Part shown: positions 19,841 through 56,955 of the stretch, in pieces | Position numbering within the stretch: the stretch's first letter is position 1 | How the letters are laid out: every line of letters begins with the position of its first letter | Source: Oceanispirochaeta sp. | Lineage (GTDB): Bacteria > Spirochaetota > Spirochaetia > DSM-2461 | NCBI GenBank assembly: GCA_963663385.2 | Contig: CAXXXD010000002.1 | Span: forward strand, 1,632,001-1,696,000 | Direction of reading: 5' to 3' | Length of the DNA: 64,000 nucleotides | The notes under the pieces: model-generated | Databases searched by the model: none | Seen by the model: the letters and a program-made list of their open reading frames with translations, nothing else | What the model was told of the DNA's origin: nothing | Program-made: the position numbers and the translations under genes

Positions 19841-19863
19841 GATGCTCGCCCATGCATCCGGGA

Positions 19864-20013
19864 ATTGGTCAATATAAAATATCTCTGGTGTAAAGCTCAG
19901 GGATATGTTTGATCAAATCAGGATTTAGTTTGCTCCATGGAGTGAACCGCTCCGTGCGGACCCGCTTGCAGGGTGGTGTGGGGCCCGAGGTTAGAAGCCT
20001 CCGGCTACCCGAT
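19864..20013 (+). mobile_element. Degenerate 3' remnant of a group II intron (end of RT ORF plus domains V-VI)
   Basis: Encodes ...LVNIKYLWCKAQGYV*, then GAACCGC...CCGGCTACCCGAT as in the full copies. Confidence 0.85.
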
Positions 20014-20023
20014 TTCTGCAGTC

Positions 20024-20527
20024 TTATTTTTTATTGTCTAACCTCATAATTATAGATGTCCCTGCCGCACCACATTCAATAAAACCATTTCTTTCATATA
20101 ATCTAACTGCAGGATTATCCGGATCAACGCTTAATGAAATTGAATCTATTTTATATTTTGTTTGATTTAATAATTCTTTTAATAATGCTGATCCAATTTT
20201 CTGCCCACGCTTGTGGTAATCGACTGCAATTCCGAGTTCTGGTATATTATCAGCTATGTATCCATATCCTTTATCGCTGGAAGTGAAGTAACGTAGCCAA
20301 ATTGCTCCTATTCTTTTTTTTGTTTTATTATCAATAGCAATGTATCCAAAATCTCCTTTTTTACCCCAATTCTCAACATATTTACGAATTTTGGGATCTT
20401 TGATTATATCACGATCCGGAGGAGGGGAATTTGTATCAACATATATTGATTGGTAGAGCATTTCATATAGAAAATCCTGATCATTGACACCTATTTTTCT
20501 TAATAAAAAATTATTTTCATTTCCCAT
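20024..20527 (-). CDS. GNAT N-acetyltransferase (integron cassette gene)
   Basis: Motif A (IAVDYHKRGQKIGSALL), SLSVDPDNPAVRLYERNGF; bounded by an R' candidate (ACATAAC, 20843-20849) and the intron remnant at 20013. Confidence 0.88.
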   Translation of the reverse strand: MGNENNFLLRKIGVNDQDFLYEMLYQSIYVDTNSPPPDRDIIKDPKIRKYVENWGKKGDFGYIAIDNKTKKRIGAIWLRYFTSSDKGYGYIADNIPELGIAVDYHKRGQKIGSALLKELLNQTKYKIDSISLSVDPDNPAVRLYERNGFIECGAAGTSIIMRLDNKK

Positions 20528-20849
20528 ACATTTATTCCTTGATTTAAATATTTAATATTATTGAATTATTTCATTACGGTGTAAATATAAAAAATATGTA
20601 TAACTTTTTTATATAAAACCTAATAAATAATTTCAGTTATGATAAAATACTTACCTACACAATATTCTCAGTTCCAAGTTTCTTTATTTACCACCGGAGG
20701 TTAAATCCATAACCAAATATTTCTTTGCATACTTTCCAATTCTATTTTCTATGGCACATAATTTTTTCCCATCCGCCGCAGGCGGATTAATATATTCTGA
20801 TTTTGAAAAACAATTCACTAATCATAATAAATATCCCGCCTTACATAAC

Positions 20850-21250
20850 GAGACTGTAGAAAAACTCAAACTGGGTATTTTCAAGGCTCCCCTGAAAGTA
20901 CTCATTTGGAAAAATCATTCATCTCTTTGATTTCAATATTAAATCCGATTAAAACCGGCTATATTCAACTACAATTGGTTTATCCTACGCTATACCCATT
21001 CTTTAGCACTTTTCCGTATTCCTACGCACTATACTGCTGGATTTTCCCGATATTATGCACGATACAGTACAACAACCACTGTGTCCGGACCTTTTCCGTA
21101 CCCCGTAAAGTAAAGCGATTCAGCTTTTTCATTCCGGCAATATGTCCGAATACAGGTCCCACCGTATACCGACCGTCATTGCTTCTGAAGTCGGGGGATT
21201 TCAGCCACATGTCATGACCGGCAGGGTAGATAAGCTGGTTGGTTGCCGTA
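20850..21250 (-). pseudogene. IS1182-family transposase remnant with terminal IR
   Basis: C-terminal DDE_Tnp_1_6-like motif (VGPVFGHI...RFTLRGTEKVRTQWLLYCIVHNIGK); end sequence GAGACTGTAGAAAAAC at 20850. Confidence 0.7.
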
Positions 21251-21332
21251 TCCATGGAGTGAACCGCTCCGTGCGGACCCGCATGCTCATTTGATGTGGG
21301 GGTTGGAGGTTAAAAGCCTCCGGCTACCCGAT
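21251..21332 (+). mobile_element. Degenerate group II intron domain V-VI remnant
   Basis: TCCATGGAGTGAACCGC...GCCTCCGGCTACCCGAT with mutated DV stem. Confidence 0.85.
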
Positions 21333-21351
21333 TTACGCAGACTTTTTAATT

Positions 21352-21627
21352 CTATTTATATGCTTCATCATGGGACCCAATACTTATGGGAATTATAGTT
21401 TCATCTTGGATCAGGAATTCGATTGTTATTCGGTATGAAATATTAATAGATATACTATATAGTTCTGATAAATTCCCTTTTAACTGATGTAAGCGTAGAG
21501 ATGGGTGATTAGGATTTATTTCCATTAGCTGTAAAGTCTTAGAATACTGTCTTTTTATCTCTGGGTGTTTTTTTAAAAATTTTGCAGCTTTTTTTTCATA
21601 ACTATGTGTAAATATGATTTTAGGCAT
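21352..21627 (-). CDS. Type II TA toxin, RelE/ParE (YafQ/YoeB-like) superfamily
   Basis: 91 aa; NPNHPSLRLHQLKG, SISINISYRI, IGSHDEAY; overlaps the upstream antitoxin. Confidence 0.88.
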   Translation of the reverse strand: MPKIIFTHSYEKKAAKFLKKHPEIKRQYSKTLQLMEINPNHPSLRLHQLKGNLSELYSISINISYRITIEFLIQDETIIPISIGSHDEAYK

Positions 21628-21877
21628 CAGTTATTCTTTCTATATGGTCTTCAATACTCCCGGTATAATAATTTCCTTCTTGTATATCTTTTTTTGCTTC
21701 AACTAATGCGGCTTCAAGTTCACATTCTCTTAAGCGGTTGTATTCATCAATAGAAAGAACAATATATTTAATTTTACCTCTGACAGTTATAACTGCTTCA
21801 TTCTCCTCAGAGATCACTTGATCCAGAACTGAGACACCTTTAATTTTCAAATCATTGGCTGTTATACTATTAAACAT
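21620..21877 (-). CDS. Type II TA antitoxin, Phd/YefM family
   Basis: ITANDLK, AVITVRGKIKYIVLSIDEY; acidic C-terminus. Confidence 0.88.
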   Translation of the reverse strand: MFNSITANDLKIKGVSVLDQVISEENEAVITVRGKIKYIVLSIDEYNRLRECELEAALVEAKKDIQEGNYYTGSIEDHIERITDA

Positions 21878-21895
21878 TTTTTTACCTCATTATCA

Positions 21896-21924
21896 ATAGT
21901 ACGATTAATTGTGCTCTAAATCAA
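21896..21924 (-). promoter_or_regulatory. Sigma70 promoter of the TA cassette
   Basis: TTGATT-17 bp-TACTAT on the minus strand, just inside a GTTATAG core-site candidate (21927-21933); an imperfect AGCAC...GTACT palindrome overlaps it. Confidence 0.65.
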
Positions 21925-22409
21925 TTCTATAACAGTTGAATTATTATGTATTTTCTAAGAAAGGGTAACCTCGCAAATTATCTTGGACCAATCTCTTATG
22001 AACCTATCTAACTGACAAAGATCATTTCACAAAACAGTTGAATCAGTTTTCTCATCCTCCGAACATAAAAAAAGGAGCAACTCCCCGCCAAGGTTTCTGC
22101 TCCTTAAATCTCACTCCCTCCCCAAAAGGAGGAAACTTAACTGTTACTTCTTTTTCGGATATCTTTACAAAAATTTCAAGCCCTTGGAAAAGATTTTTTC
22201 TGGAATAAACCAAATCATTGTCCAAAATGCGGAAGCCGGGTACTCTGGGGCCATGGTTTTGTTTACCGCTACTTCAATGAATTTCCGGAAGCCCTTCTTC
22301 TCAAACGATACCGTTGTCCCTGCTGCGGAGCAGTGTACCAATAGAAATATCTGACTAGGCGATCCTGGGGCTGGTCGCAAACAAGTTTGCTGCTCGCCCA
22401 TGCAACCAG

Positions 22410-22906
22410 GGTGTTTCTATGGAATACAGGATCCGGAAACTCAATGAGTATATCCGGGCCCTGGTCACAGCTCCGCTGTTGCTCGGGTATGCGGCCGAGC
22501 TGGATGAACTATTATGGAATCTCCCAGTATTACAGCCCTCTTCAGAACCTAGATGATTGGCTCCGCAGGAGGATTCGCATGTGCTATTGGAAACAATGGC
22601 GTTATCCCAGAACAAAAGTCAGGAAACTGATGGAATTGGGTATCCCTAAAGATTTTGCAATTATTACAGGTGCCAGTAGTAAATCCTACTGGCATCTCTC
22701 CAAGTCATACGCTACCAATGCGGCGATGTCCAACAAATGGCTGGAAGAGCAAGGATTGGTCAATATCAAATACCTCTGGTGCAAAGCCCAGGGATATGTT
22801 TGATCAAATCAGGATTTTAGTTTGCTCCATGGAGTGAACCGCCCTGTGCGGACCCGCATGCAGGGTGGTGTGGGGGCTGGAGGTTAAAAGCCTCCGGCTA
22901 CCCGAT
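22410..22906 (+). mobile_element. Degenerate 3' remnant of a second, diverged group II intron variant
   Basis: Domain X peptide WMNYYGISQYYSPLQNLDDWLRRRIRMCYWKQWR...KAQGYV* differs from the main copies; DV-DVI intact, ends CCCGAT at 22906; ~40-bp foreign insertion near 22460. Confidence 0.88.
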
Positions 22907-23495
22907 TTATGAAGGAGTTTTTTAATTATATCTAACTCCAAATATTTGTTCTGTACTTTACATTGTTTTCAAAAGTCCAACCACTTCAGTTACACGCGTG
23001 GAATGTCTGGAGGAAGCCGGAATGCAAAACCGGGAGCCCATGTACAAGAATGTGATAGAAGGCTCAGTTCCAGAGGCGAGTCAGCCAATGATGACGATGC
23101 CCCGTGGGTATGGAATAGGGTAAATCACAGGGTTGTCCGGGGACAGTGTACAGTCTTATTCGGGGAGATCTGTCTGCGGGGCGGTGATGTGTTCTTTTAA
23201 ACTGAGAATCCGGTAGGGAACCGGAAAACCAATCCCCGGCTTTTCAGAGGGTGACACTCTGGAAATGAGCAAGATTATCTTGAGTACAAATAAGTCGTCA
23301 CAGGTTTAAAAGCACGGTATAGCATCAACGGGAGCAATCTCGTTGATTAGCAGGCAGAAGTCAGCAGAAGGCATAGTAACCAACGCCCGGAGTAATGTCC
23401 GGTTCACGGTGAAGGCCTGAACATTTCACAAGGAGGAGCCTTATGGTTCTCAAAGGAACAATTTTAGCACTGGCCGAAATAACTTTTGGCGAATT

Positions 23496-24523
23496 ATGGA
23501 GAAACCAGCCTTGAACGATTCTATGATGGATTTGATTTTATCATCTGAAAACATGCGTAAGGCCTGGAAACAGGTCAAACGCAATGGCGGCAGTCCGGGA
23601 GTCAATGGCATGACTATTGAGAAATTTCCGGAATATCTACGCAGAAGATGGAGTAAAATCAAGCAAGCTTTGCTTTTGGGGTACTATGTACCCTCTCCGG
23701 TGCTCAGGGTGGAAATCCCCAAGAGATCCGGAGGTATGCGAATGCTGGGTATTCCCACTATTTTAGACAGGGTTATCCAACAGGCTATTTCACAGGTTTT
23801 GAATCCTCTATTCGATTCGGATTTTTCGGAAAGCAGTTTTGGATTCAGGCCGGGAAGATCGGCTCACGGAGCAGTACGACAGGTAAATACCTATGTTAAA
23901 TCGGGATACAAGTATGCAGTTGATCTGGACTTGGAAAAGTTCTTTGATACGGTAAATCACGATATTCTGATGCATTGTGTGGCTAAGAAAGTCCGGGACA
24001 AATCAGTCCTGAAATTGATTGGCCGCTACCTGAGAGCCGGTATTATGGACAAGGATGGGATTAAAATCCCTACTGAAATCGGGACTCCTCAAGGAGGCCC
24101 GTTATCACCTCTACTTTCCAATATCCTTCTTGATAATTTCGATAAGGAGTTGGAACGGAGAAACCTGTGCTTTGCACGTTACGCAGATGATGCATTAATT
24201 GTATCAAAACGCCTGTGTGATGGAAAAGCTATATTGACTGAAATAAGTGATTATCTCAGTCGCAGGTTAAAATTGGTTGTAAACCAGAAGAAAAGCAAGG
24301 TGTGTAAAATCTCCGAATGCAGTTTTCTGGGATTCACTTTCAAGGGTAAGAAAATCCGATGGACTGAATCATCCTTTCGGGAGTTTCAATATCAGTTAAA
24401 GCATTTGACAAGACGGTCTTGGGGGGTATCAATGGAATATCGATTCCGGAAACTTAACGAGTATATCCGGGGGTGGATGAACTATTATGGTATTTCCCAA
24501 TATTACAGACCTCTACAATCAAT
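23496..24523 (+). pseudogene. ltrA: Group II intron reverse transcriptase/maturase, interrupted by IS66 (remainder 28865-29125)
   Basis: RT motifs LGIPTILDR, DLDLEKFFD, GTPQGGPLSP, RYADD; cut in domain X. Confidence 0.92.
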
Positions 24524-24585
24524 GTAAGCGGTAATTCTCTCCATCTTGCGTGATTTCGAAATGATTATATACTCCATGAAAAATC

Positions 24586-24882
24586 ATGGAGGAACCTAAT
24601 ATGACCAACTGGAATTGGCCTGAATTAATCGAAGAACAAAAACAGAGCGGGAAAACAATTTCTGAGTTCTGCGCAGATAAAGGAGTTCACTATACATCTT
24701 TCTACAAGAATCGAAAAAAATTAAAGAAAAGCAGTTTTATTGAAATCAAACAGAAAGCCCCGGTATTACAGCCACAAAACCCCACAATGATACTCAGATA
24801 CAAGGATTTCTCATTGGATCTGGCATCAGGTTATAACAGGCAATCCCTGATAGATCTTCTGAAGATTCTGAGAGAGTTGTAA
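24586..24882 (+). CDS. tnpA: IS66 accessory protein TnpA
   Basis: 98 aa; W..LIEEQKQSGKTISEFC HTH; first ORF inside the IS66 IR. Confidence 0.88.
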   Translation: MEEPNMTNWNWPELIEEQKQSGKTISEFCADKGVHYTSFYKNRKKLKKSSFIEIKQKAPVLQPQNPTMILRYKDFSLDLASGYNRQSLIDLLKILREL

Positions 24883-27215
24883 TGTTTGGTACGCCCGACA
24901 TGGCTGTACGCTAATGAGGTGAAAGTCCTCTACAGGTGCCCACGTATAGTGAACATGCTATACCAACTGTTAGCTGAAGGCAAGGGCATTTCCGCGAGGG
25001 AATGTCTGGAGGAAGCCGGAATGCAAAACCGGGAGCCCATGTACAAGAATGTGATAGAAGGCTCAGTTCCAGAGGCGAGTCAGCCAATGATGACGATGCC
25101 CCGTGGGTATGGAATAGGGTAAATCACAGGGTTGTCCGGGGACAGTGTACAGTCTTATTCGGGGAGATCTGTCTGCGGGGCGGTAATGTGTTCTTTTAAA
25201 CTGAGAATCCGGTAGGGAACCGGAAAACCAATCCCCGGCTTTTCAGAGGGTGACACTCTGGAAATGAGCAAGATTATCTTGAGTACAAATAAGTCGTCAC
25301 AGGTTTAAAAGCACGGTATAGCATCAACGGGAGCAATCTCGTTGATTAGCAGGCAGAAGTCAGCAGAAGGCATAGTAACCAACGCCCGGAGTAATGTCCG
25401 GTTCACGGTGAAGGCCTGAACATTTCACAAGGAGGAGCCTTATGGTTCTCAAAGGAACAATTTTAGCACTGGCCGAAATAACTTTTGGCGAATTATGGAG
25501 AAACCAGCCTTGAACGATTCTATGATGGATTTGATTTTATCATCTGAAAACATGCGTAAGGCCTGGAAACAGGTCAAACGCAATGGCGGCAGTCCGGGAG
25601 TCAATGGCATGACTATTGAGAAATTTCCGGAATATCTACGCAGAAGATGGAGTAAAATCAAGCAAGCTTTGCTTTTGGGGTACTATGTACCCTCTCCGGT
25701 GCTCAGGGTGGAAATCCCCAAGAGATCCGGAGGTATGCGAATGCTGGGTATTCCCACTATTTTAGACAGGGTTATCCAACAGGCTATTTCACAGGTTTTG
25801 AATCCTCTATTCGATTCGGATTTTTCGGAAAGCAGTTTTGGATTCAGGCCGGGAAGATCGGCTCACGGAGCAGTACGACAGGTAAATACCTATGTTAAAT
25901 CGGGATACAAGTATGCAGTTGATCTGGACTTGGAAAAGTTCTTTGATACGGTAAATCACGATATTCTGATGCATTGTGTGGCTAAGAAAGTCCGGGACAA
26001 ATCAGTCCTGAAATTGATTGGCCGCTACCTGAGAGCCGGTATTATGGACAAGGAGGGGATTAAAATCCCTACTGAAATCGGGACTCCTCAAGGAGGCCCG
26101 TTATCACCTCTACTTTCCAATATCCTTCTTGATAATTTCGATAAGGAGTTGGAACGGAGAAACCTGTGCTTTGCACGTTACGCAGATGATGCATTAATTG
26201 TATCAAAACGCCTGTGTGATGGAAAAGCTATATTGACTGAAATAAGTGATTATCTCAGTCGCAGGTTAAAATTGGTTGTAAACCAGAAGAAAAGCAAGGT
26301 GTGTAAAATCTCCGAATGCAGTTTTCTGGGATTCACTTTCAAGGGTAAGAAAATCCGATGGACTGAATCATCCTTTCGGGAGTTTCAATATCAGTTAAAG
26401 CATTTGACAAGACGGTCTTGGGGGGTATCAATGGAATATCGATTCCGGAAACTTAACGAGTATATCCGGGGGTGGATGAACTATTATGGTATTTCCCAAT
26501 ATTACAGACCTCTACAATCAATTGATGAATGGCTGAGAAGAAGAATCCGTATGTGCTACTGGAAACAGTGGCGTTACCCCAGAACAAAAGTCAGGAAACT
26601 GATGGAGCTGGGTATTCCGAAAGATTTTGCCATTATGACAGGAGCAAGTAGTAAGTCCTACTGGCATCTGTCAAAAGGCTATGCAACCAATGCCGCTATG
26701 TCCAATAAATGGTTGGAAGAGCAAGGATTGATCAATATTAAGGCCCTCTGGTGTAAAATCCAGGGCTACACATGATCAAATTATAGTTTCGTTTGCTCCA
26801 TGGAGTGAACCGCCCTGTGCGGACCCGCATGCAGGGTGGTGTGGGGGCTGGAGGTTAAAAGCCTCCGGCTACCCGATTTGACCTGAACGAATACCGGATC
26901 TTTCTGAGACCCGGCACGACAGACTTAAGAAAAGCGATCAACGGATTATCTCTGTTTATCCAGAATGAAATGAATCATGATTTATTCGCCAAATCGCTAT
27001 TCCTCTTTTGTAACCGGCAGAGAAAACTTCTGAAAATTGTCTACTGGGATAATACCGGTTTTTGTCTCTGGCAGAAGAGACTGGAAGAGAACAGATATCC
27101 CTGGCCGGAAACAGATGAAGATGCTAAAGAGATCAGCATGGATGAATTGAAAATGCTCCTGACGGGAATAGACTTTTTCAAAGCGCATAAAAAATTATCA
27201 TATTCCCGTATTTAG
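24882..27215 (+). CDS. tnpB: IS66 TnpB split by a group II intron (exon 1 24882-24888, exon 2 26878-27215; 114 aa when spliced)
   Basis: ATGTTTG + TTGACCTG rejoin to MFVDLNEY..., matching the uninterrupted start at 41271(-); TDLRKAINGL, LFLFCNR, GFCLWQKRLE. Confidence 0.92.
24889..26877 (+). mobile_element. Group II intron copy B (intact, 1,989 bp)
   Basis: 5' GTACGCCCGACATGG, 3' DV (GAACCGCCCTGTGCGGACCCGCATGCAGGGTGGTG), DVI and terminal AT; boundaries fixed by the intact tnpB allele. Confidence 0.97.
25495..26775 (+). CDS. ltrA: Group II intron reverse transcriptase/maturase (no endonuclease domain)
   Basis: 426 aa; RT0-7 with YADD, domain X (RGWMNYY, WLRRRIRMCYWKQW); no HNH domain. Confidence 0.96.
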   Translation: MEKPALNDSMMDLILSSENMRKAWKQVKRNGGSPGVNGMTIEKFPEYLRRRWSKIKQALLLGYYVPSPVLRVEIPKRSGGMRMLGIPTILDRVIQQAISQVLNPLFDSDFSESSFGFRPGRSAHGAVRQVNTYVKSGYKYAVDLDLEKFFDTVNHDILMHCVAKKVRDKSVLKLIGRYLRAGIMDKEGIKIPTEIGTPQGGPLSPLLSNILLDNFDKELERRNLCFARYADDALIVSKRLCDGKAILTEISDYLSRRLKLVVNQKKSKVCKISECSFLGFTFKGKKIRWTESSFREFQYQLKHLTRRSWGVSMEYRFRKLNEYIRGWMNYYGISQYYRPLQSIDEWLRRRIRMCYWKQWRYPRTKVRKLMELGIPKDFAIMTGASSKSYWHLSKGYATNAAMSNKWLEEQGLINIKALWCKIQGYT

Positions 27216-27254
27216 AGATTTTATAATTATAGAAACTTTGATAGAATTCCCCGT

Positions 27255-28817: not shown

Positions 28818-29300
28818 TCCATCAGTCCTAAAATGCTGTCAATGTGGGAAGAATTACCGCTTACCAATCAATTGATGAATGGCTGAGAAGAAGAATCCGT
28901 ATGTGCTACTGGAAACAGTGGCGTTACCCCAGAACAAAAGTCAGGAAACTGATGGAGCTGGGTATTCCGAAAGATTTTGCCATTATGACAGGAGCAAGTA
29001 GTAAGTCCTACTGGCATCTGTCAAAAGGCTATGCAACCAATGCCGCTATGTCCAATAAATGGTTGGAAGAGCAAGGATTGATCAATATTAAGGCCCTCTG
29101 GTGTAAAATCCAGGGCTACACATGATCAAATTATAGTTTCGTTTGCTCCATGGAGTGAACCGCCCTGTGCGGACCCGCTTGCAGGGTGGTGTGGGGGCTG
29201 GAGGTTAAAAGCCTCCGGCTACCCGATTTATACGGCCCGCATTTTACCAACATCTTCCGCGCCCCCGCCGAAGCACAGGACGTGCGGAGGTGGATTTCTT

Positions 29301-45265: not shown

Positions 45266-45754
45266 TTATACAGTGTTTATTTTTTTCACAATCCTTACTT
45301 CTGATTCAACTAATAATTCTGCTTCAAAATTTGTATCTATTGTATTAATACCTTGCCAATATTGATGAGCTTGTAACTCAAGAGCTGGTAATACTGGTCT
45401 GCTATGAGGTATTCTTTCGTATAGTTTCATTGAACATCTGTGTATCATTTTATCTGAGATAATTTCAACTTCGTATAAATGACAACCTTCTCTATTGTCT
45501 TTTTTTAAGAAATCAGTTGATTCTTCTATTGTTTCAAATAAAAATATGGATTTTAATCTACTAGGATGCTCTGGATAATGTTTTAATCGAATTAATTCAA
45601 AGGTTTGTTCTTGAAATAGCCTCCAAATCATAGCCCTTTCATTATCATTGCCATATAAAATGTAATTCTCATTTATTATTTTACCCATGCTTCCTGGTTG
45701 GAGAATATCACCAGCGGATAATTTTCTTTCATTTAGATGATAGTATTTCTTCAA
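45266..45754 (-). CDS. DUF2441-like protein (possible ADP-ribosyltransferase-like fold); cassette gene
   Basis: YYH...EQTFELIRLKHYPEHPSRLKSIFLF...YEVEI...YWQG...ELLVE pattern; the stop codon lies in the R'' box. Confidence 0.65.
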   Translation of the reverse strand: MKKYYHLNERKLSAGDILQPGSMGKIINENYILYGNDNERAMIWRLFQEQTFELIRLKHYPEHPSRLKSIFLFETIEESTDFLKKDNREGCHLYEVEIISDKMIHRCSMKLYERIPHSRPVLPALELQAHQYWQGINTIDTNFEAELLVESEVRIVKKINTV

Positions 45755-45756
45755 CG

Positions 45757-46476: not shown

Positions 46477-46497
46477 TTTTTACCCCCATTTTCATCT

Positions 46498-46609
46498 GTA
46501 TAACGCCCGCATCAGCTGCAATTTTGTCCCGAAGGGTTGGCGTAGTTTTTGAAATGAGCGAAGCGACTTCAAAAACTATGACAAAAAAATTGTCAGTTGC
46601 ATGCGATTG
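46498..46609 (-). other. attC site of the three-gene SMC cassette (118 bp when rejoined with 48599-48604), split by intron copy E
   Basis: GTATAAC...G|TTATGT; stems CGCAT-CAGCTG-CAATTTT / AAAATTG-T-CAGTTG-C-ATGCG and TAGTTTTTGAA / TTCAAAAACTA. Confidence 0.9.
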
Positions 46610-48598: not shown

Positions 48599-48624
48599 TT
48601 ATGTGTCCTCGTTTTGATACATAT

Positions 48625-50295
48625 TCATAATAGATTGATCATCACATGATGTAAATTTACTTCCATTCCATTTCTATTATGAACTGTTGTTATGTTCCGA
48701 ACATCCGCATATATTTTCTCATCTATAATTTGATCTGTCCGCTCATAAACGAAATTATATTCTTCTATGTAAGTACAATATTTCTCCCATAATTTATCAA
48801 AATATACAGCATTTGAATAAATCAATATAATATTTTGCTTTAATCCAGTTGAGTCGTAATTAAATATTTTATCAATATGTAAATTGATATATGTTTTATC
48901 AAGAGAATCAAGATTTAAAGCCTCTATTATTGTGAATGGACGCTTCTTCTTATCATAAACAAGTATATCAATCTCGCCTGCATTCTTTCCAGTTGCTGAT
49001 TTACTCCATCTTGTCTGATCTTTTACATGATATTTAGATGTTTCAAGCAGAGTGGCAATAAATGTATTTCTATCATCTTCAGAAAAATTACCTCTATAAT
49101 TTCTATTCCCTTGCATTTTAATGCAGGCAGAAATTAAACTATCAAAAATATTTTGAAATGAATATTCTTGCAATTCTTCAAAACACTTTAATATACTTAC
49201 AGGATCATCTGGATCTATTTTTGATATGACAATATCTCTTCTACTTTGTGGAATATAATGAAACAATTCTGACATTTTGCTTTTTATACTCTCATTCTCA
49301 ACTTTTTTTTTTAGATTTTTATCTCTAATTATATTGGTCATATTCTGTAAAAATTGTAATTTTTCTTCTTCTGAAATACATTCCTTTTTTAATAACTCTA
49401 TTTTCGATAGCTGGGATTGAAAATTACAAGAGAAGAAAGGAACAATAAACTTAGTATTGATAATATTCTTAAATTGTTTAGAGATTGTACTCTTATTCAA
49501 TCGTTCGTTTAATAATTCGTTTTCAATTTCAGAATAATAGAGAAATAGCTCATCCATATCTGATCTAAAATTCAACCAATCATCTGGTTTTTTTGAATAT
49601 ATTTTTGCCACAGAAAAAAGAATCCTGTAAAATCCAAAATAGAAAGAACTGATTAGATTATTGATTGAAAGAGATACAATTTTAAAGATTAATTCAGGGA
49701 TTTTGCTCAAGTATTGATCTACTAAAGGTGTTTGATGTTTTACTAAATTTAATAATACAGCTGTTACAAGACTGAAAAACTCTGAATCTACTCTATTTTC
49801 AATAGTGTTTTTTGATTGAAGAAAAAAGTCATTTGATCTTTCAATATTCTGTATGAAATTAATTGTATCTAAAGAGAAAAAACTCTTTTGCATAAAGATA
49901 AGACCAAGATTATACAGAGCCTCTGAAGATATCTCTAAATCACTATTAATCGATGAAGTTTCATAAACTGACTCAATCTCTGAAGATTCTTTTTCGTAGA
50001 ATAAATGTAAGATTTTTAGTCTCTGAACCTCGAGAAAGGCGTCATTTTCAGATTGCCAATCATCTAATAGTAATGATAGTATTTGTCTTTCTTTAATATT
50101 ACCAAGCAAGAAATGATCAAAAAGAAGAGTTAGTGCTTCTTTTTTGACATATGAGTTTTCAGATCTATGTAAGATAATACCTTTGATAAATATAAAGAAA
50201 TCGCTTTGAGTTTTATTGCAAAATATATTATCATCTCTTAAATAGTTGAGTTTTTCATTCATTCCTTTTTTGTTAAATCTCTCTAGATTAGACAT
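48625..50295 (-). CDS. Alpha-helical protein with a C-terminal PD-(D/E)xK-like nuclease domain; cassette gene
   Basis: 556 aa; C-terminal SEDDRN...AGEIDILV...IIEALNL resembles an REase fold (E...D...ExA variant). Confidence 0.6.
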   Translation of the reverse strand: MSNLERFNKKGMNEKLNYLRDDNIFCNKTQSDFFIFIKGIILHRSENSYVKKEALTLLFDHFLLGNIKERQILSLLLDDWQSENDAFLEVQRLKILHLFYEKESSEIESVYETSSINSDLEISSEALYNLGLIFMQKSFFSLDTINFIQNIERSNDFFLQSKNTIENRVDSEFFSLVTAVLLNLVKHQTPLVDQYLSKIPELIFKIVSLSINNLISSFYFGFYRILFSVAKIYSKKPDDWLNFRSDMDELFLYYSEIENELLNERLNKSTISKQFKNIINTKFIVPFFSCNFQSQLSKIELLKKECISEEEKLQFLQNMTNIIRDKNLKKKVENESIKSKMSELFHYIPQSRRDIVISKIDPDDPVSILKCFEELQEYSFQNIFDSLISACIKMQGNRNYRGNFSEDDRNTFIATLLETSKYHVKDQTRWSKSATGKNAGEIDILVYDKKKRPFTIIEALNLDSLDKTYINLHIDKIFNYDSTGLKQNIILIYSNAVYFDKLWEKYCTYIEEYNFVYERTDQIIDEKIYADVRNITTVHNRNGMEVNLHHVMINLL

Positions 50296-52381
50296 TAGAA
50301 TATAAACTCATTTTCTGGTGTATTTAGTTCGTTATCAACAATATTTGAGAGCTTCCTCTCTGCTGTTCCTATTAATATTTGTAAATTATCACCAAAACGA
50401 CTATGAATACTTTTTAATACGCGAGATAATCCACTAGATATTTATCATCAGCTTCTTCTTTCCCGGGACTATCGATTATCAAAAAACGCGTATGTCTACC
50501 AAAATTTCTTTCAATATCTAATTGAATTAAACTCAAATAAAATGCAAGTTTAGCTCGTAGCTGTTCTCCTTCAGCTATATCATTAAATGAGATGAAATCA
50601 CCATCTTGATTATAAAGTATATCAAATTTATCATTTATTGAAATTTCAGAGATTGAAGTTAATCCCAATTCGTTGATCTCATTAAGCATTATAGATTTCA
50701 ATTTATCAAGAATATCTTTACCTTCTTTAAAACGTATGATGTTCAATCTATTAATAGCATCTTCTATAACAGTAATTTGACTATCAAAATCAATTTCTTT
50801 GTTCTCTACAACTTTTTGATTTCCCTCAATTTGAAATTGAATTACTGCCTTTTTTGCTAATAACTTATCTCGTAGATCTCTTGTAGGTGATATGGATTCT
50901 ATTTCTTCTTTCGTTTTAGTTAATTCTTCATTTAATTTATCAAGAACTGTTGAATTTTGTCTCATTACATTTATATTATCTAGTTCGGAATATAAGTCTT
51001 TCTCTTTATTCTTATATTCACCATATTCTATTTCTAAACTTTGAAGTTCTTTAGTAATATTACTATTTAGATTCTTCAAGTCTTCGATTTTGTTCTGAAT
51101 ATTATCAATTTGAAAGTCAGATTCGGAATTTAACTCTTCACTGCATAATGAACACTTACGGTCGTGAACATTTCCTTTAGCTTTATCTTTGCTAATTTTG
51201 TGATTACAGCTAGGACATTGAGTAATATTGAGGTTTGAAAAAAAGACTCCTATATCACTGTATTCAGTTAAGTCATTTATTCTTTTAATATTTTTATTGA
51301 TTTCTCCATTTAGTCTCGATATTTTCTGCTCTAAACTTTTTAACTCATTATTGGTTTTTTTTAATATTAAGTATTTATCATTATATAGTTTCTCATTTTC
51401 TGCTGTCTTATTGTTCTCATTTTTTATTTGAACAATTAGAGATTCACTTTTATCCAATAAGGGTTTTAATGTTATATCAGATTCTGATTCTATTCTTGAT
51501 AACTCTTGTTCAACAGTCGCTAATTGATTTTTCAGTTCAACAAAATCTTTATGTTGTGTATCATTTTTTTCTAAATATTGCTGTTTAGATTTTTCATTGA
51601 GAATGAAATCCTTACGAATACAAAGTTGATTGATGGGGTAAGTAAAATGTAAACCGAGAAGCATTTGAAATACTTTTCTATCTTGACCTCCAAAAATGAG
51701 GCTTGAAGAATCTTTGGACTCAAGAAAAATAGATTTAAAATAAGTTCTCCAACTTGTTCCTACTTCCAGTAACTCATTACTGTCTTTTGCAGAGTTTTTT
51801 TGTGTCCATTTTAATGAATAATATGAAAATTGTTGAAAGAAAAAATCCTCAATCTTCTTTTGATATTCGATTTCACTCTTTGCATTGAAAATTTCTTTAT
51901 CTTTATTCTGTTCTAGTTCATTAATATTTTTATAGTGACCAAATAATAATGATGCACTAAGTCTTCCTTCAAGATTGAGGTATGCTGTATATTTTCTTTC
52001 CCCTATAGAAAAACAAAGAAGTAAATCATCAATCCACTTTTTTATATTTTGCTTAATTGAATTACTACCAGTTAAAATATATTTAATCATTTTAAAAATG
52101 CTAGATTTTCCTTTTAGGTTATCAGCAATAATGATATTTATTCCATTTCCAAACTCTTGATTATAGTCAATAATATTACCTGTATAAATATGTCTATCAG
52201 AAGTTCTCTTTTGGCCTTTAAAATGGATATAATCAATTTTAATATTTTTTCCTGTTGATATAGGAGTATCCTTTAAATAAGATTCTTCAAGACTAAGAAG
52301 CTCTTCTATTTCATTTAGAGTATATTTATCCTTATAATCATCATATAACTCATTTAAAAATTTCTTGAAATCAAAAATCAT
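50295..52381 (-). pseudogene. SMC/Rad50-like ABC ATPase with a frameshift near 50417-50441 (ORF track: 50414-52381)
   Basis: Walker A ADNLKGKSS, coiled coils, CPSC...CSLC hinge, signature IAEGEQ, Walker B FLIIDSPG; the missing C-terminus (…LQILIGTAE…EFIF*) continues in another frame to a TAATG overlap with the next gene. Confidence 0.82.
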
Positions 52382-53031
52382 AAAGGCTCTCCATAAATAT
52401 TCCTAAATTTATTTAATACTTGATCTTCTATACTACCGATATAGTCTTTATACGAAGTATTTTTGTATTCTGAAATCTTGTATTGTGAAATTTTTAATTC
52501 AGTTCCAGATAAATTTCCAAAGTATTTTTTTATTAATGCACATCTATTAGCGTACCATTGAAAACTTTTATGATCTTCAAAATCATCTTTCATTTTATTA
52601 ACTGCTATTTCAGTTATATAGTATTCCTTTTCAATTGTACGCATAGATGTGCTTTTTTTACTATGAAATTCAATAAACTCAATACCAACAAGAAAAGCTA
52701 TAATATCATCAATATCCTCATAAGCTCCAAAGAAAAATCGTTCCATTTCAAGCCTTCTAATTTGAGGTTCATTGTTCTTAAAAATTGATTGTACTTCTTC
52801 TTTTATTGTCTTTTTGTCTTCAATATTTTTTTCAGCAATTTCAAGTAATTCATAAGCCAAATAATCAGGATTTCGTAATAAAAAATCGATTTTCTGAATT
52901 TTCACTTCGCTCTTAAAAAGTTTCTTTCTTGAAGGAAATTGTGAATCAGAAAAGTTCTCTGAAAAAAAATATAAAATGAGAAAGATCCTCAACTTATCTT
53001 TATAATCTCTTATTATTTCATTTTCAGTCAA
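52378..53031 (-). CDS. Hypothetical 217-aa protein, possible winged-helix 'middle component' of an ABC three-component system
   Basis: TTG start behind AGGAG; ATGA overlap with the ATPase; KIQKIDFLLRNPDYL, FFGAYEDIDDIIAFL. Confidence 0.6.
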   Translation of the reverse strand: MTENEIIRDYKDKLRIFLILYFFSENFSDSQFPSRKKLFKSEVKIQKIDFLLRNPDYLAYELLEIAEKNIEDKKTIKEEVQSIFKNNEPQIRRLEMERFFFGAYEDIDDIIAFLVGIEFIEFHSKKSTSMRTIEKEYYITEIAVNKMKDDFEDHKSFQWYANRCALIKKYFGNLSGTELKISQYKISEYKNTSYKDYIGSIEDQVLNKFRNIYGEPL

Positions 53032-53066
53032 ATTTATTCTCCTGTAATTATTGATACCTTTTGTAC

Positions 53067-53235
53067 ACATAACGCCAAAATATGCTGCGGAGCGGCCTGG
53101 CCGAAGGACAGGTACAGGCGCTTTTCTTGCAGACTTATTTTAAACAGTAATTTGTTTTTAAGAAAGAACTATTTATCAGCATACTGTATCTCTGCAAGAA
53201 ATGTGATCTGTAGCGACGACAGTATAATTTTCTTG
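53067..53235 (-). other. attC site of the first cassette (175 bp when rejoined with 55225-55230), split by intron copy F
   Basis: ACATAAC...G|TTATGT perfect R boxes; AAAATATGCTG / CAGTATAATTTT and TTCTTGCAGA / TCTGCAAGAA stems. Confidence 0.82.
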
Positions 53236-55224
53236 GTACGCCCGACATGGCTGTACGCTAATGAGGTGAAAGTCCTCTACAGGTGCCCACGTATAGTGAA
53301 CATGCTATACCAACTGTTAGCTGAAGGCAAGGGCATTTCCGCGAGGGAATGTCTGGAGGAAGCCGGAATGCAAAACCGGGAGCCCATGTACAAGAATGTG
53401 ATAGAAGGCTCAGTTCCAGAGGCGAGTCAGCCAATGATGACGATGCCCCGTGGGTATGGAATAGGGTAAATCACAGGGTTGTCCGGGGACAGTGTACAGT
53501 CTTATTCGGGGAGATCTGTCTGCGGGGCGGTAATGTGTTCTTTTAAACTGAGAATCCGGTAGGGAACCGGAAAACCAATCCCCGGCTTTTCAGAGGGTGA
53601 CACTCTGGAAATGAGCAAGATTATCTTGAGTACAAATAAGTCGTCACAGGTTTAAAAGCACGGTATAGCATCAACGGGAGCAATCTCGTTGATTAGCAGG
53701 CAGAAGTCAGCAGAAGGCATAGTAACCAACGCCCGGAGTAATGTCCGGTTCACGGTGAAGGCCTGAACATTTCACAAGGAGGAGCCTTATGGTTCTCAAA
53801 GGAACAATTTTAGCACTGGCCGAAATAACTTTTGGCGAATTATGGAGAAACCAGCCTTGAACGATTCTATGATGGATTTGATTTTATCATCTGAAAACAT
53901 GCGTAAGGCCTGGAAACAGGTCAAACGCAATGGCGGCAGTCCGGGAGTCAATGGCATGACTATTGAGAAATTTCCGGAATATCTACGCAGAAGATGGAGT
54001 AAAATCAAGCAAGCTTTGCTTTTGGGGTACTATGTACCCTCTCCGGTGCTCAGGGTGGAAATCCCCAAGAGATCCGGAGGTATGCGAATGCTGGGTATTC
54101 CCACTATTTTAGACAGGGTTATCCAACAGGCTATTTCACAGGTTTTGAATCCTCTATTCGATTCGGATTTTTCGGAAAGCAGTTTTGGATTCAGGCCGGG
54201 AAGATCGGCTCACGGAGCAGTACGACAGGTAAATACCTATGTTAAATCGGGATACAAGTATGCAGTTGATCTGGACTTGGAAAAGTTCTTTGATACGGTA
54301 AATCACGATATTCTGATGCATTGTGTGGCTAAGAAAGTCCGGGACAAATCAGTCCTGAAATTGATTGGCCGCTACCTGAGAGCCGGTATTATGGACAAGG
54401 AGGGGATTAAAATCCCTACTGAAATCGGGACTCCTCAAGGAGGCCCGTTATCACCTCTACTTTCCAATATCCTTCTTGATAATTTCGATAAGGAGTTGGA
54501 ACGGAGAAACCTGTGCTTTGCACGTTACGCAGATGATGCATTAATTGTATCAAAACGCCTGTGTGATGGAAAAGCTATATTGACTGAAATAAGTGATTAT
54601 CTCAGTCGCAGGTTAAAATTGGTTGTAAACCAGAAGAAAAGCAAGGTGTGTAAAATCTCCGAATGCAGTTTTCTGGGATTCACTTTCAAGGGTAAGAAAA
54701 TCCGATGGACTGAATCATCCTTTCGGGAGTTTCAATATCAGTTAAAGCATTTGACAAGACGGTCTTGGGGGGTATCAATGGAATATCGATTCCGGAAACT
54801 TAACGAGTATATCCGGGGGTGGATGAACTATTATGGTATTTCCCAATATTACAGACCTCTACAATCAATTGATGAATGGCTGAGAAGAAGAATCCGTATG
54901 TGCTACTGGAAACAGTGGCGTTACCCCAGAACAAAAGTCAGGAAACTGATGGAGCTGGGTATTCCGAAAGATTTTGCCATTATGACAGGAGCAAGTAGTA
55001 AGTCCTACTGGCATCTGTCAAAAGGCTATGCAACCAATGCCGCTATGTCCAATAAATGGTTGGAAGAGCAAGGATTGATCAATATTAAGGCCCTCTGGTG
55101 TAAAATCCAGGGCTACACATGATCAAATTATAGTTTCGTTTGCTCCATGGAGTGAACCGCCCTGTGCGGACCCGCATGCAGGGTGGTGTGGGGGCTGGAG
55201 GTTAAAAGCCTCCGGCTACCCGAT
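53236..55224 (+). mobile_element. Group II intron copy F (intact)
   Basis: Same ends and length as copy B. Confidence 0.97.
53842..55122 (+). CDS. ltrA: Group II intron RT/maturase
   Basis: Identical 426-aa protein. Confidence 0.96.
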   Translation: MEKPALNDSMMDLILSSENMRKAWKQVKRNGGSPGVNGMTIEKFPEYLRRRWSKIKQALLLGYYVPSPVLRVEIPKRSGGMRMLGIPTILDRVIQQAISQVLNPLFDSDFSESSFGFRPGRSAHGAVRQVNTYVKSGYKYAVDLDLEKFFDTVNHDILMHCVAKKVRDKSVLKLIGRYLRAGIMDKEGIKIPTEIGTPQGGPLSPLLSNILLDNFDKELERRNLCFARYADDALIVSKRLCDGKAILTEISDYLSRRLKLVVNQKKSKVCKISECSFLGFTFKGKKIRWTESSFREFQYQLKHLTRRSWGVSMEYRFRKLNEYIRGWMNYYGISQYYRPLQSIDEWLRRRIRMCYWKQWRYPRTKVRKLMELGIPKDFAIMTGASSKSYWHLSKGYATNAAMSNKWLEEQGLINIKALWCKIQGYT

Positions 55225-55448
55225 TTATGTCTACAGCATTTTGTAAATCACCGATGCCATATCAGGCAAGAATATCTTAATAAACGTAGGTGAAGGCGAA
55301 TGCCCTTATTTCCACTTCTGCCAGCCGCAACCGGCGTCAAAGATTGATAATCAGTGTAGTGTGAGCATCAATCAACCCGTATCAAAACCCTAAAACCTAC
55401 TAAATCATCTGGCAATTATGAAAGAACCAGAAGTACAAAATGTGTTCG

Positions 55449-55455
55449 ATATAAC
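55449..55455 (-). other. Candidate attI core site (GTTATAT on the minus strand)
   Basis: GTT core between the first attC and intI, ~270 bp upstream of intI; no attC-like hairpin seen behind it; context resembles the cassette start at 43179. Confidence 0.5.
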
Positions 55456-55728
55456 TTATTATCTCTTGAACAAGGTATTCCTCAATTTCCTGAAAAACCT
55501 TGCATTCATATCTATATAGCATATAAATGGTCAGCAAATTACTGATTTATAGCAAGAGATAAGTAAAAAACGCTTCATTTTACACCGGATTTCAACATCA
55601 TTAAAGAGAATATTCTACTAACTTTAGTTAGCATTTCAGCATTGAGGAGCAAAATACCCTGCTTTTGAAGCAGTATTACCCTTATACCCGTAAAAATACC
55701 TTGAAAGACATAATAGGAGAAGATTCAT

Positions 55729-56955
55729 ATGACATATAAAGATTATCTAAGAGAAAAGGCGGGAATCTCTGAAAAATATATTCCATATTATGAACACTGG
55801 ATTACATTGTATCATAAATATATTAAGGAAAACCCGGAGAACTGTCGTTTAACAGCCTTTGAAAAATCATTACTTTCGCAATATAAGGACTGGCAAATCG
55901 ATCAGGCCGTAGAATCAGTAAAGCATTATCAGTTCTATTCAGGCATTAAAAAACAAGAGTCATCAGCAAATTGTCCGGATTCAGATTCTGAATGGAACCG
56001 GTTAATAGAAACAATGAAACAAATGCTGCGACTGAAACACCGTTCCTATCAGACGGAAAAAAGTTATTTAAAATGGATTCAATCATTTCATATATATATA
56101 AAGGGGAAAAATACAGCTCAACTGGATTCTAGGGATATGAAAAACTTTCTTACTTATCTGGCCGTGGAGAAAAAAGTTTCCCTGTCTACCCAAAATCAGG
56201 CATTCAATTCTCTGCTGTTTCTGTACCGTTCTGTGTTGGAGATTCCCGTAGAGGACCTGGGAAATACAATCAGGTCAAAGCTCCCATCCCGGCTGCCTGT
56301 CGTATTAAACAAGGATGAAATCAGAAGCATTTTATCCCTCATGCCGCCGGGTTATCGCCTAATGGCATCCATAATCTATGGCGGTGGATTGAGACTGGAT
56401 GAATGCCTTTCTCTGCGTATAAAAGATCTGGATCTGGATGTACCCTCCGTTACGGTCAGGGAAGGAAAGGGAAAAAAGGATCGAATAACGCTCCTTCCAA
56501 CTGCTCTGGTTCCTCTATTAAAAGATCATATCCTGTCTGTAAAAATAATATATGAATCAGGCGTAAAAAAGGATCTGCCCGGCGTGTCAATTCCGGAATC
56601 CCTGAACAGAAAATACCCCAATGCTTTCAAAGAGTGGGGGTGGTTCTGGTTATTCCCTTCAAAAAACATAACGGTAAACCCTTATACCGGCCAGTTAAAC
56701 CGCTTTCATCTGCATCCTTCAGGATTGCAGAGGGCCTTTAAAGAAGCTGTCAGACAGACCGGGATTACAAAGAGGGCATCCGTACACACCCTGCGTCACA
56801 GCTTTGCCACCCATCTGCTGGAGGCAGGGTACGACATCAGAACCATACAGGAACTTATGGGACACAGCTCCCTGCAGACAACCATGATCTATACCCACGT
56901 GGCCGGTAAAAACCGGCTCGGCGTTATCAGTCCGGGGGAATCTCTTTTTACGTAA
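55729..56955 (+). CDS. intI: Integron integrase (tyrosine recombinase)
   Basis: SYQTEKSY, STQNQAFNSLLFLY, YGGGLR, IntI-specific insertion (SLNRKYPNAFKEWGWFWLFPS), HTLRHSFATHLL, LMGH, TMIYTHV; AGGAG RBS. Confidence 0.96.
   Translation: MTYKDYLREKAGISEKYIPYYEHWITLYHKYIKENPENCRLTAFEKSLLSQYKDWQIDQAVESVKHYQFYSGIKKQESSANCPDSDSEWNRLIETMKQMLRLKHRSYQTEKSYLKWIQSFHIYIKGKNTAQLDSRDMKNFLTYLAVEKKVSLSTQNQAFNSLLFLYRSVLEIPVEDLGNTIRSKLPSRLPVVLNKDEIRSILSLMPPGYRLMASIIYGGGLRLDECLSLRIKDLDLDVPSVTVREGKGKKDRITLLPTALVPLLKDHILSVKIIYESGVKKDLPGVSIPESLNRKYPNAFKEWGWFWLFPSKNITVNPYTGQLNRFHLHPSGLQRAFKEAVRQTGITKRASVHTLRHSFATHLLEAGYDIRTIQELMGHSSLQTTMIYTHVAGKNRLGVISPGESLFT

Follow-up and report, generated by a model that had tools for sequence, protein, structure and literature searches.

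A chromosomal defence integron of Oceanispirochaeta with a group II intron in every attC site detected beside its integrase gene

Group II introns of the IIC-attC type insert into the bottom strand of integron attC sites, run antisense to the cassettes and part a gene from its attC, as passages in PMC3001079 and PMC7923331 describe; mostly they occupy the last cassette (passages in PMC3001079). The introns of the locus described here resemble this type, represented by S.ma.I2 of Serratia marcescens and its relatives (Quiroga, Centron, Leon, Roy), in their bottom-strand insertion, antisense orientation, endonuclease-less IEP and length of about 2 kb. They share both termini (GTACGCC...GGCTACCCGAT) and three Rfam domains with introns of the class 1 integron on plasmid NZ_MF564291, which already shows two introns in consecutive attCs. 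By best-hit identity, only 50-52% aa to integron-borne introns, the IEP may belong to the monophyletic attC subclade of class C; among its best plasmid matches are introns that share these termini and sit in attCs of a class 1 integron. The occasional use of a terminator-like hairpin is also common to both, while the host junction, TTG/TT, lies one base upstream of the published TTGT/T, which was confirmed on the plasmid copies. Terminator-homing class C introns, as portrayed in parts of PMC4424553, are similar in their stem-loop target, very short exon match, lack of an endonuclease and replication-dependent mobility, but the introns of this locus go mainly to attC hairpins and not to terminators.

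The setting differs as well, the host being the chromosomal integron of an environmental anaerobe with defence cassettes instead of resistance cassettes. Defence cassettes and a homogeneous attC family are features of the sedentary chromosomal integrons that store anti-phage defence cassettes (bioRxiv 10.1101/2024.07.02.601686), from which this locus departs in its short array of full-size, multi-gene cassettes of 1.3-5.9 kb; the term intron is absent from that preprint. The intron type is already known. Unusual are the completeness of occupation (4 of 4 attCs, and 6 of 8 in a sister species, against one or two sites in known IIC-attC cases), its recurrence in that species and its link to the direction of replication.

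The window, meaning the whole stretch of 64,000 nucleotides that was analysed, holds a true integron, with an integrase, attCs and divergent cassettes (Table 1). The intI ORF is intact (408 aa), matches TIGR02249 at 380.6 bits (cut-off 265; aligned over 2-313 of 315) and carries the Pfam domains Phage_integrase and Phage_int_SAM_4. No second integron integrase was found in the host genome, which makes this intI its only one. All cassette ORFs lie on the minus strand, left of the plus-strand intI, and are thus divergent from it and co-oriented. Homology between copies of the first cassette stops at ...GATATAA/C near 55455, and the putative attI is placed from that boundary. For the GNAT acetyltransferase no NCBIfam model scored above its cut-off. 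The 118-nt gap at 50296-50413, between Lamassu genes, was considered as a further attC and rejected, as it folds at only -6.9 kcal/mol and has no model match.

Table 1. Coordinates of the integron features in the window, ordered by position (R1, attC covariance model).
Feature	Position	Strand	Basis or details
Intron remnant A, older 3' remnant, beside the IS66 fragment (18881-19831) that closes the array	19861..20013	+	Sequence comparison
GNAT acetyltransferase (20024-20527) cassette	20014..20843	-	Pfam
IS1182-like IS, deleted remnant, beginning directly after an ...ATAAC box	20844..21255	+	Sequence comparison
Intron remnant B, older 3' remnant	21251..21332	+	Sequence comparison
RelE/HigB-like toxin (21352-21627) and Phd/YefM antitoxin (21620-21877) cassette	21333..21933	-	Pfam
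Intron remnant C, older 3' remnant	22499..22906	+	86% to resident family, 91-92% to sister-species introns
Intron copy C'/E (23000-24523 and 28865-29227), without its first ~113 nt	23000..29227	+	Split by IS66 24524-28864
Intron copy D, intact, within IS66 24524-28864 at an ectopic TTG/TT	24889..26877	+	Sequence comparison
Type III restriction-modification (Res 29301-31985, Mod 31985-34177) and DUF3800/PDC-M04A (34178-35032) cassette	29228..35152	-	Pfam, PADLOC
attC, rebuilt 98 nt	35153..35244	+	R1 60.6 bits (35153-35250), fold -23.0 kcal/mol
Intron copy F (35245-37040 and 41630-41830), split	35245..41830	+	IS66 carrying IS21 (37041-41629)
PIN_8 domain protein (41845-43128) cassette	41831..43172	-	PF18476, 3.1e-63
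attC, rebuilt 110 nt	43173..43276	+	R1 60.5 bits (43173-43282), fold -29.5 kcal/mol
Intron copy G, intact	43277..45265	+	Rfam, identity
Abi_alpha/PDC-S47 (45757-46476) and DUF2441 protein (45266-45754) cassette	45266..46497	-	Pfam, PADLOC
attC, rebuilt 118 nt	46498..46609	+	R1 102.4 bits (46498-46615), fold -26.4 kcal/mol
Intron copy H, intact	46610..48598	+	Rfam, identity
Lamassu cassette (LmuC 52378-53070, LmuB 50414-52381, LmuA 48625-50295)	48599..53066	-	PADLOC E-values: LmuC 1.3e-68, LmuB 8.7e-135, LmuA 9.2e-42
attC of first cassette, without the last 6 nt of R'' (at 55225-55230); rebuilt 175 nt	53067..53235	+ (bottom strand)	R1 70.5 bits (match 53067-53241), fold -28.9 kcal/mol, R box 7/7
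Intron copy I, intact, 1989 nt, IEP 53842-55122	53236..55224	+	Rfam, Pfam, identity
First cassette, ORF-less, 231 nt, repeated in genome	55225..55455	-	98-100% identity to other copies
Putative attI/promoter region	55456..55728		Between intI start and end of first-cassette homology
intI	55729..56955	+	TIGR02249, Pfam

All nine intron 3' ends listed by the first-pass annotation were recovered at the same positions (the right-hand ends of the intron rows in Table 1). Seven coincide with the end of a match to Rfam RF00029 (domain V/VI); those at 20013 and 21332 are BLAST matches, 83% and 89% identical to the intron's 3' end. Together they represent four intact copies (D, G, H and I; 1989 nt, 100% identical), two copies interrupted by IS66 (2352 bp, with 8-bp target duplications, GGCTATGC in copy F) and three older, 5'-truncated remnants (A, B and C). 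All lie on the plus strand with the cassette ORFs on the minus strand, so the reported antisense orientation is correct. The first-pass annotation, which put eight ends beside cassettes, implied that one stands apart: that of copy D sits inside IS66 and away from any attC, and the empty counterpart of its site is visible in the other IS66 copy at 41265. Six of the eight ends outside IS66 fall within 0-73 nt of a minus-strand ORF stop, one adjoins the ORF-less first cassette, and the end of remnant C adjoins only a 93-nt remnant.

The junction reads TTG/GTACG...CCCGAT/TT at every copy. The intron has three Rfam domains (RF02001, RF01998 and RF00029) and encodes an IEP of 426 aa with RVT_1 and GIIM only, that is, reverse transcriptase and maturase without an endonuclease domain (TIGR04416, 401 bits). 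Judged by these sequence features, the window introns are attC-homing, class-C-type group II introns. Five copies share 100% identity along 1992 nt, which indicates a recent burst; the identity could also reflect gene conversion. The three remnants belong to a second intron lineage and thus point to an older intron wave. Among ten copies of the resident family in the host genome, six are found in attCs, one in IS66 and one beside a terminator-like hairpin, and the other two no longer have their 5' junction. The terminator-like insertion lies 1.5 Mb away (C2:97522), where the intron follows a hairpin and a T-run, and the resident intron is also found on two other contigs.

To locate attC sites, a covariance model (R1) was trained on 11 attCs of this genome that lack introns. 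In their alignment 21 of 32 pairs covary with compensatory changes and AAC/TTGTT is invariant, and the family is homogeneous across the host genome. Run with filters off, this family-specific model, which could overlook strongly divergent attCs, gave exactly four matches at E<1 in the 64 kb (60-102 bits; the next ones at E=3.4 and 6.3). Each of the four ends at an intron 5' end (TTG/GTACG), so occupancy is 4/4. In-silico removal of the introns restored hairpins of 98, 110, 118 and 175 nt, as had been claimed, and the rebuilt sites are good attCs by the covariance model, with folding energies of -23.0 to -29.5 kcal/mol and z-scores of -4.9 to -9.2 against 200 shuffles. R-box complementarity is 5-7 of 7 in the rebuilt sites, and with the intron in place only 3-4 of 7 pairs are possible with its first bases.

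The proposed split at TTG/TT in the R'' box agrees with the intact sites of the same genome, 13 of 15 of which read exactly TTG/TT and are therefore competent by sequence; the remaining two read ATG/TT and TTG/AT. The statement that no intron-free attC exists holds for the window and fails genome-wide, where 15 of the 21 model matches are intron-free, all of them in integrase-less arrays on contigs other than that of the window. In all six occupied attCs of the host genome the intron has entered the bottom strand and runs antisense to the cassettes, which confirms the orientation originally proposed. A heuristic scan for AAC...GTT hairpins over 17000-58000 returned no intact attC, only the internal stem of a split attC and a hairpin in a flanking gene. 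A site reading TTG/ATACT (C3:755210 in the host; C1:1295350 in the sister species) was considered as a junction with another inserted element and discarded, being a variant R'' beside an Eco57I-type methylase cassette.

Identical 2-kb repeats are hard to assemble, and Logan contigs extend just 24-25 nt into the intron and so do not bridge it. A collapsed or over-expanded repeat is nonetheless scarcely credible as the source of the repeated units. Intron k-mer depth is 7.8, 8.8 and 8.0 times cassette depth in three isolate runs from two samples (125.8/16, 358.7/40.8 and 322.8/40.2), giving about 8 intron copies, in agreement with the roughly 9 assembled. Every intron junction has unique flanks, and a second genome, that of the sister species, shows the same layout.

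Two proposals about what the introns do to the cassettes found no support. Shuffling by homologous recombination between the repeats left neither chimeric junctions nor empty-site or cassette-deletion joints with sides of at least 30 nt; joints with shorter sides in Logan contigs were set aside as repeat cross-matches. The alternating layout had also been likened to an intermediate of cassette creation as modelled by Leon and Roy, in which terminator-intron genes are joined to attCs through recombination between introns (outlined in passages of PMC7923331 and PMC3053210), and the insertion at a terminator-like hairpin would suit that model. Against it, intron removal turns every occupied site into a complete attC of a single homogeneous family, and no hybrid terminator/attC junction was seen. 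Moreover, the first cassette, which has no ORF of at least 50 aa and is 98-100% identical to copies on host contigs C1, C3 and C4, has copies that stand intron-free with their attC at five other places in the genome; the cassettes are thus older than the introns. Simple homing into pre-existing attCs of one family explains the layout, which makes an origin by cassette creation very improbable. The intron-free copies would fit a recent capture of the first cassette followed by intron insertion.

The sister species (G009) has a different integron, at a non-syntenic locus. Introns fill 6 of the 8 attCs beside its intI and 3 of 14 in the rest of that genome, and all nine have likewise entered the bottom strand and run antisense to the cassettes. 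The array contains at least three intron subfamilies, whose IEPs differ in ORF length and match the query at 72%, 81-82% and 83% identity; one subfamily of this species inserts at ...CGTTA/. Occupied sites are contiguous in both arrays, that of the host and that of the sister species.

The orientation of the arrays relative to replication provides a further comparison. Three measures identify the plus strand of contig C2, which carries the window, as the leading one: a positive GC skew in 35 of 37 50-kb bins, an excess of ORFs of at least 300 aa (645 on the plus and 488 on the minus strand), and the location of all three 16S genes on the plus strand. The attC bottom strands of the window lie on that strand and are therefore the lagging-strand template. 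In large chromosomal integrons attC bottom strands are biased to the leading-strand template, the arrangement typical of sedentary integrons. On C1, C3 and C4 the integrase-less arrays of the host are oriented the other way relative to replication than that of the window, an orientation read on C1 and at the C4 end from weak skew (-0.04 and +0.03) close to contig ends. Skew is positive in 19 of 20 sampled 20-kb flanks of the sister species. There, contig C3 without an intI has 3 of 6 attCs occupied in lagging-template orientation, and an array of opposite orientation, which shares a contig with intI and is only 230 kb away from it, has 0 of 6. Favourably oriented free sites also occur, namely two attCs beside the intron-rich array and both of those on contig C2 (0/2 occupied).

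Pooled over both genomes, 13 of 20 attCs with the bottom strand as lagging-strand template are occupied versus 2 of 23 in the opposite orientation (Fisher p=0.00025), a p-value that overstates the case because just two genomes, themselves related, contribute to the contrast and adjacent sites are not independent. Within the host genome orientation and intI proximity are fully confounded (4/4 versus 2/17); integrase-less arrays alone give 3/8 versus 2/23 (p=0.09). The saturation could be read as an effect of neighbourhood to which replication is irrelevant: ribonucleoproteins would act near their source, or IntI on nearby folded attCs would help, and a founder copy would spread along the integrase-linked array while distant arrays were rarely struck. 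The excess of occupied sites beside intI in both genomes, their contiguity in both arrays and the identity of the resident copies all favour such local spread. The presence of at least three subfamilies in the sister array does not, as spread from one founder does not explain that array. Nor do the half-filled sister contig without intI, the empty array of opposite orientation 230 kb from one, and the arrival of the resident intron at a terminator 1.5 Mb off and on two other contigs. Purely local spread is a possible but rather improbable explanation.

We favour, with a probability of roughly 0.6, the reading that the attCs of a chromosomal integron of working type were invaded serially by an active, endonuclease-less, attC-homing class-C intron, and that lagging-template orientation favours the filling. 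The intron ribonucleoprotein would recognise the folded, single-stranded bottom strand of an attC, a stem-loop with TTG/T after it, and would reverse-splice into the R'' box at G/TT. Insertion into the bottom strand at this point would leave the intron always antisense and R'' 2 kb from the rest of the site. On the lagging-strand template attC hairpins may fold from single-stranded DNA at each passage of the fork, and Okazaki fragments could prime reverse transcription; that endonuclease-less introns take replication-fork strands as primers is described in part of PMC4424553. With its bottom strands on this template the window array would fill up, and the integrase-less arrays of opposite orientation would remain almost intron-free. 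A broader generalisation is tentative, and we consider it possible with the odds against it: replication direction may decide which arrays attC-homing introns can colonise, lagging-template arrays would fill and turn into a one-way defence store, and intron load would be a hidden force behind the opposite-orientation bias. If occupancy does follow replication orientation, it offers a new reason for the bottom strands of large chromosomal integrons to lie on the leading-strand template.

Under serial invasion IntI would be unable to excise the resident cassettes any longer, since their R box cannot form, and the locked array suggested by the first-pass annotation is plausible from the sequence. 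Read-through from Pc would likewise be interrupted by the introns. Since attI and intI appear intact, one-way capture at attI should remain possible, and each newcomer would probably soon be occupied. The array would then act as a one-way store, trimmed only through IS insertions and deletions. Integrons are valued as on-demand cassette reshufflers, and an array with every attC split by an intron would be a case in which excision is disabled and capture is not.

Selection might also have kept the introns, if they lock defence cassettes against loss by excision and supply outward promoters that make the distant Pc unnecessary. Experiments on S.ma.I2 demonstrated outward promoters that restore the expression of downstream cassettes, and related IIC-attC introns are predicted to have them (passages in PMC3001079); in the window, multi-kb defence cassettes (Lamassu, Abi, PIN and type III RM) are set apart by all four occupied sites. 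In addition, the toxin-antitoxin cassette with intron remnant B is 91% identical to a cassette in the sister species, whose IntI is just 62% identical to that of the host. The promoter-like signal within the intron is, however, not significantly above background (7 promoter-like sites versus 4.0 +/- 1.9 expected in shuffles), with one 9/12 minus-strand site in the intron 5' region (47021-46994). IS66 has wrecked two (F and C'/E) of the array's six resident-family copies, and purifying selection is not seen. Identical copies have also settled at a terminator and within an IS, positions that offer no benefit of this kind. Selfish homing alone explains the data, and maintenance by selection is unlikely.

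Annotation is affected as well, as integron finders will overlook intron-filled arrays or cut them short, along with their defence systems. In the present array, which is short, most cassettes are of the anti-phage defence kind. Among 80 loci encoding IntI relatives an intron IEP lies nearby in one (L098), and just 18 of the 80 show at least 3 kb upstream of intI, so this set is unusable as a survey. In a class-wide search, which yielded no additional replicate, the intron lineage was present at E<=1e-120 in 4 of 301 sampled genomes.

The Oceanispirochaeta genome (5.3 Mb in four contigs, C1 to C4) encodes a single integron integrase, that of the window, which spans C2:1632001-1696000. All window cassettes lie on the minus strand to the left of this gene, and where the array ends there is a fragment of IS66 together with a gene for an EamA transporter (Table). 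An extra T after 50434 was present at full depth in all three isolate runs, so that one base is probably missing from the assembly close to the lmuB 3' end; the interval of 118 nt between lmuB and lmuA may therefore be an artefact.

Table. Integrase, cassettes and group II introns of the window
Feature	Position	Strand	Remark
Three short intron 3' remnants (A, B, C)	ends 20013, 21332, 22906	+	
GNAT gene cassette		-	
RelE/Phd pair cassette		-	
Intron without its first ~113 nt	23000-24523 + 28865-29227	+	split by another IS66
Intact intron, 1989 nt	24889-26877	+	BLAST
Type III restriction-modification + DUF3800 protein cassette	29228-35152	-	
Split intron	35245-37040 + 41630-41830	+	split by IS66 carrying IS21
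PIN_8 protein cassette	41831-43172	-	
Intact intron, 1989 nt	43277-45265	+	BLAST
Abi_alpha/PDC-S47 pair cassette	45266-46497	-	
Intact intron, 1989 nt	46610-48598	+	BLAST
Lamassu LmuC/B/A cassette	48599-53066	-	
Intact intron, 1989 nt	53236-55224	+	BLAST
ORF-less 231-nt cassette	55225-55455	-	nearest intI
intI, integron integrase	55729-56955	+	TIGR02249, 380.6 bits (cut-off 265)

The introns were mapped by using one copy as a BLAST query on the window, in which Rfam group II intron domains also occur on the plus strand (RF02001 and RF01998 six times each, RF00029 seven times). Each of the four full-length introns has an intact intron-encoded protein (IEP) of 426 aa (TIGR04416, 401 bits) with reverse transcriptase and maturase domains only, the endonuclease domain being absent. 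Over 1992 nt, five copies in the genome show 100% identity; the intron is also found behind a terminator-like hairpin at C2:97522. The remnants are just 83-89% identical to this resident family; remnants C and A share about 89-92% with introns of a sister species of the same genus (G009), which indicates that the array was invaded at least twice.

Because Rfam holds no attC model, a family-specific covariance model (R1) was built from 11 aligned intact attCs of the same family, reached via repeat searches in integrase-less arrays on C1, C3 and C4. The consensus fold has 32 pairs, 21 of them with compensatory changes, and AAC...TTGTT is invariant across the 11 sites. With filters off, R1 returned exactly four matches with E<1 in the whole window (102.4, 70.5, 60.6 and 60.5 bits; the next had E=3.4 and 6.3). 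All four terminate at an intron 5' end, in keeping with the first-pass annotation, which had described every recognisable attC as intron-filled. Joining the flanks in silico reproduced its rebuilt lengths of 98, 110, 118 and 175 nt, with folding energies between -23.0 and -29.5 kcal/mol (z from -4.9 to -9.2) and R boxes complementary at 5-7 of 7 positions. The junction reads ...TTG/GTACGCC...CCCGAT/TT..., and 13 of the 15 intact attCs of the genome carry TTG/TT, which upholds the proposed split: in the bottom strand, the intron separates the G of the R'' box from the TT that follows. A variant R'', TTG/ATACT, was seen at C3:755210-755306, adjoining an 813-aa Eco57I-type methylase cassette, and at a G009 attC (C1:1295350-1295524).

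The repeat array is not an assembly artefact. The ratio of intron word depth to flanking cassette depth was 7.8, 8.8 and 8.0 in the three isolate runs, which derive from two samples, in agreement with the roughly nine intron copies assembled, and the assembly is sound. No trustworthy empty-site joint was found in read contigs; these do not bridge the repeats and drop rare variants, so that failure to see such a joint does not show that empty sites are absent.

Saturation is a property of the window rather than of the genome. R1 identified 21 attCs genome-wide, with 3' ends checked: six are occupied (four in the window, one on C3, one on C4) and 15, all within integrase-less arrays, are intron-free. 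The earlier finding of no intron-free attC thus holds for the window (0 of 4 free) and fails beyond it.

Comparison with related arrays points to a second intron-rich integron. IEP matches at E<=1e-60 occur in eight of 38 genomes of the family, this one counted, and only G009 (three contigs) otherwise has many, with 12. Its single IntI is 62% identical to that of the window and lies at a non-syntenic locus, the orthologues of the window's flanking genes being 1.3 Mb away. R1 placed eight attCs upstream of it, the six nearest intI occupied and the two farthest free, and the introns of this array fall into at least three subfamilies; at other places in G009, introns fill 3 of 14 attCs. A third subfamily (L012:16049-16147; C1:1046049), whose IEP shares 72% identity with the query, has a junction displaced by three bases, ...CTCGTTA/GTACGCC. 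The RelE/Phd cassette and a 64-nt intron remnant (window 21269-21951) are 91% identical to G009 C1:1034451-1035132, which, despite the divergent IntI and the non-synteny, suggests that a cassette with a dead intron end was exchanged or long conserved between the two genomes. The adjoining 547 nt (21952-22498), between this cassette and remnant C, contain a reading frame that resembles a zinc ribbon (CxxC...CxxC) and is probably left over from a transposase; an attC would be expected there but is missing from the R1 hits in the window, while the G009 counterpart is present and intron-free.

Occupancy was then considered relative to replication. The plus strand of C2 is leading by three measures: positive GC skew in 35 of 37 bins, 645 long ORFs against 488 on the minus strand, and all three 16S genes. 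Window attC bottom strands and introns lie on this strand. In the integrase-less arrays, bottom strands are on minus with positive skew on C3 and C4 (both C4 16S genes on plus), and on plus with negative skew on C1. Skew is positive in 19 of 20 sampled 20-kb flanks in G009, where bottom strands on plus are occupied at 6/8 sites in the integrase-linked array and 3/6 in the C3 arrays, and those on minus (C1:1.29-1.30 Mb) at 0/6. Pooled occupancy is 13/20 where the bottom strand is the lagging-strand template versus 2/23 in the opposite orientation (Fisher p=0.00025, neighbouring sites not being independent); within integrase-less arrays alone the contrast gives p=0.09. These counts modestly suggest a link between occupancy and attC orientation, in two related genomes and with orientation confounded with closeness to intI in the first. 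The pattern would fit the priming at replication forks reported for endonuclease-less introns (PMC4424553). Literature searches found no statement tying attC-homing class C (IIC-attC) introns to replication orientation.

With the intron present, just 3-4 of 7 R-box pairs can form, using its first bases, so excision of resident cassettes is probably blocked, as had been proposed. Capture should still work, since intI and the inferred attI are intact. The first cassette occurs intron-free at five other genomic places; the window copy is 99.4% and 98.8% identical to intron-free copies versus 97.0% to the other occupied copy, which argues that its intron arrived independently, after capture. This cassette (53067-53235 + 55225-55455, with a long 175-nt attC) has about seven genomic copies (those outside the window at C1:37316, C3:727743, 728137, 732848, 742618 and C4:1188547), two of them occupied, and could be a promoter or small RNA. 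The Serratia marcescens intron S.ma.I2 is reported to have an outward promoter (PMC3001079); none was demonstrable in the window intron. Of the further ideas proposed, homologous recombination among the introns found no visible sign in its favour, and nothing in the data requires cassette genesis.

The observation is confirmed, and introns of this kind are already known. IIC-attC introns are the closest known counterparts, the window IEP being 50-52% identical to those on enterobacterial and Pseudomonas plasmids. In the class 1 integron of plasmid NZ_MF564291, two consecutive attCs each contain such an intron in antisense, with termini and Rfam domains that match those of the window intron; the plasmid introns have the junction TTGT/T, one base downstream of that in the window. 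Defence cassettes in chromosomal integrons have likewise been published (10.1101/2024.07.02.601686). What is new is a divergent IIC-attC-like member with a shifted junction, the occupancy of integrase-linked arrays in two different integrons (4/4 in the window's defence array, 6/8 in G009), and a testable connection to replication orientation.

Insertion sequences have reworked several introns. IS66 (2352 bp, 8-bp target duplications) inserted into the intron three times (window 24524-28864 and 37041-41629; C3:747712-750412), one window and the C3 insertion at the identical intron position 1792-1799. One IS66 was later invaded by the intron at 24889-26877 through an ectopic TTG/TT site, empty in the other IS66 copy, giving an intron-in-IS-in-intron nesting. 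An IS1182-like element (512-aa transposase, DDE_Tnp_1_6 and DUF772) occurs at C1:26333, C1:31782, C3:738708, C3:289465, C4:1193648 and C4:1182448, and in the window (20844-21255) as a deleted remnant joined to an intron remnant. An ...ATAAC box directly precedes its start in 7/7 aligned copies; most copies lie in cassette arrays, so the attC R' box may be its target.
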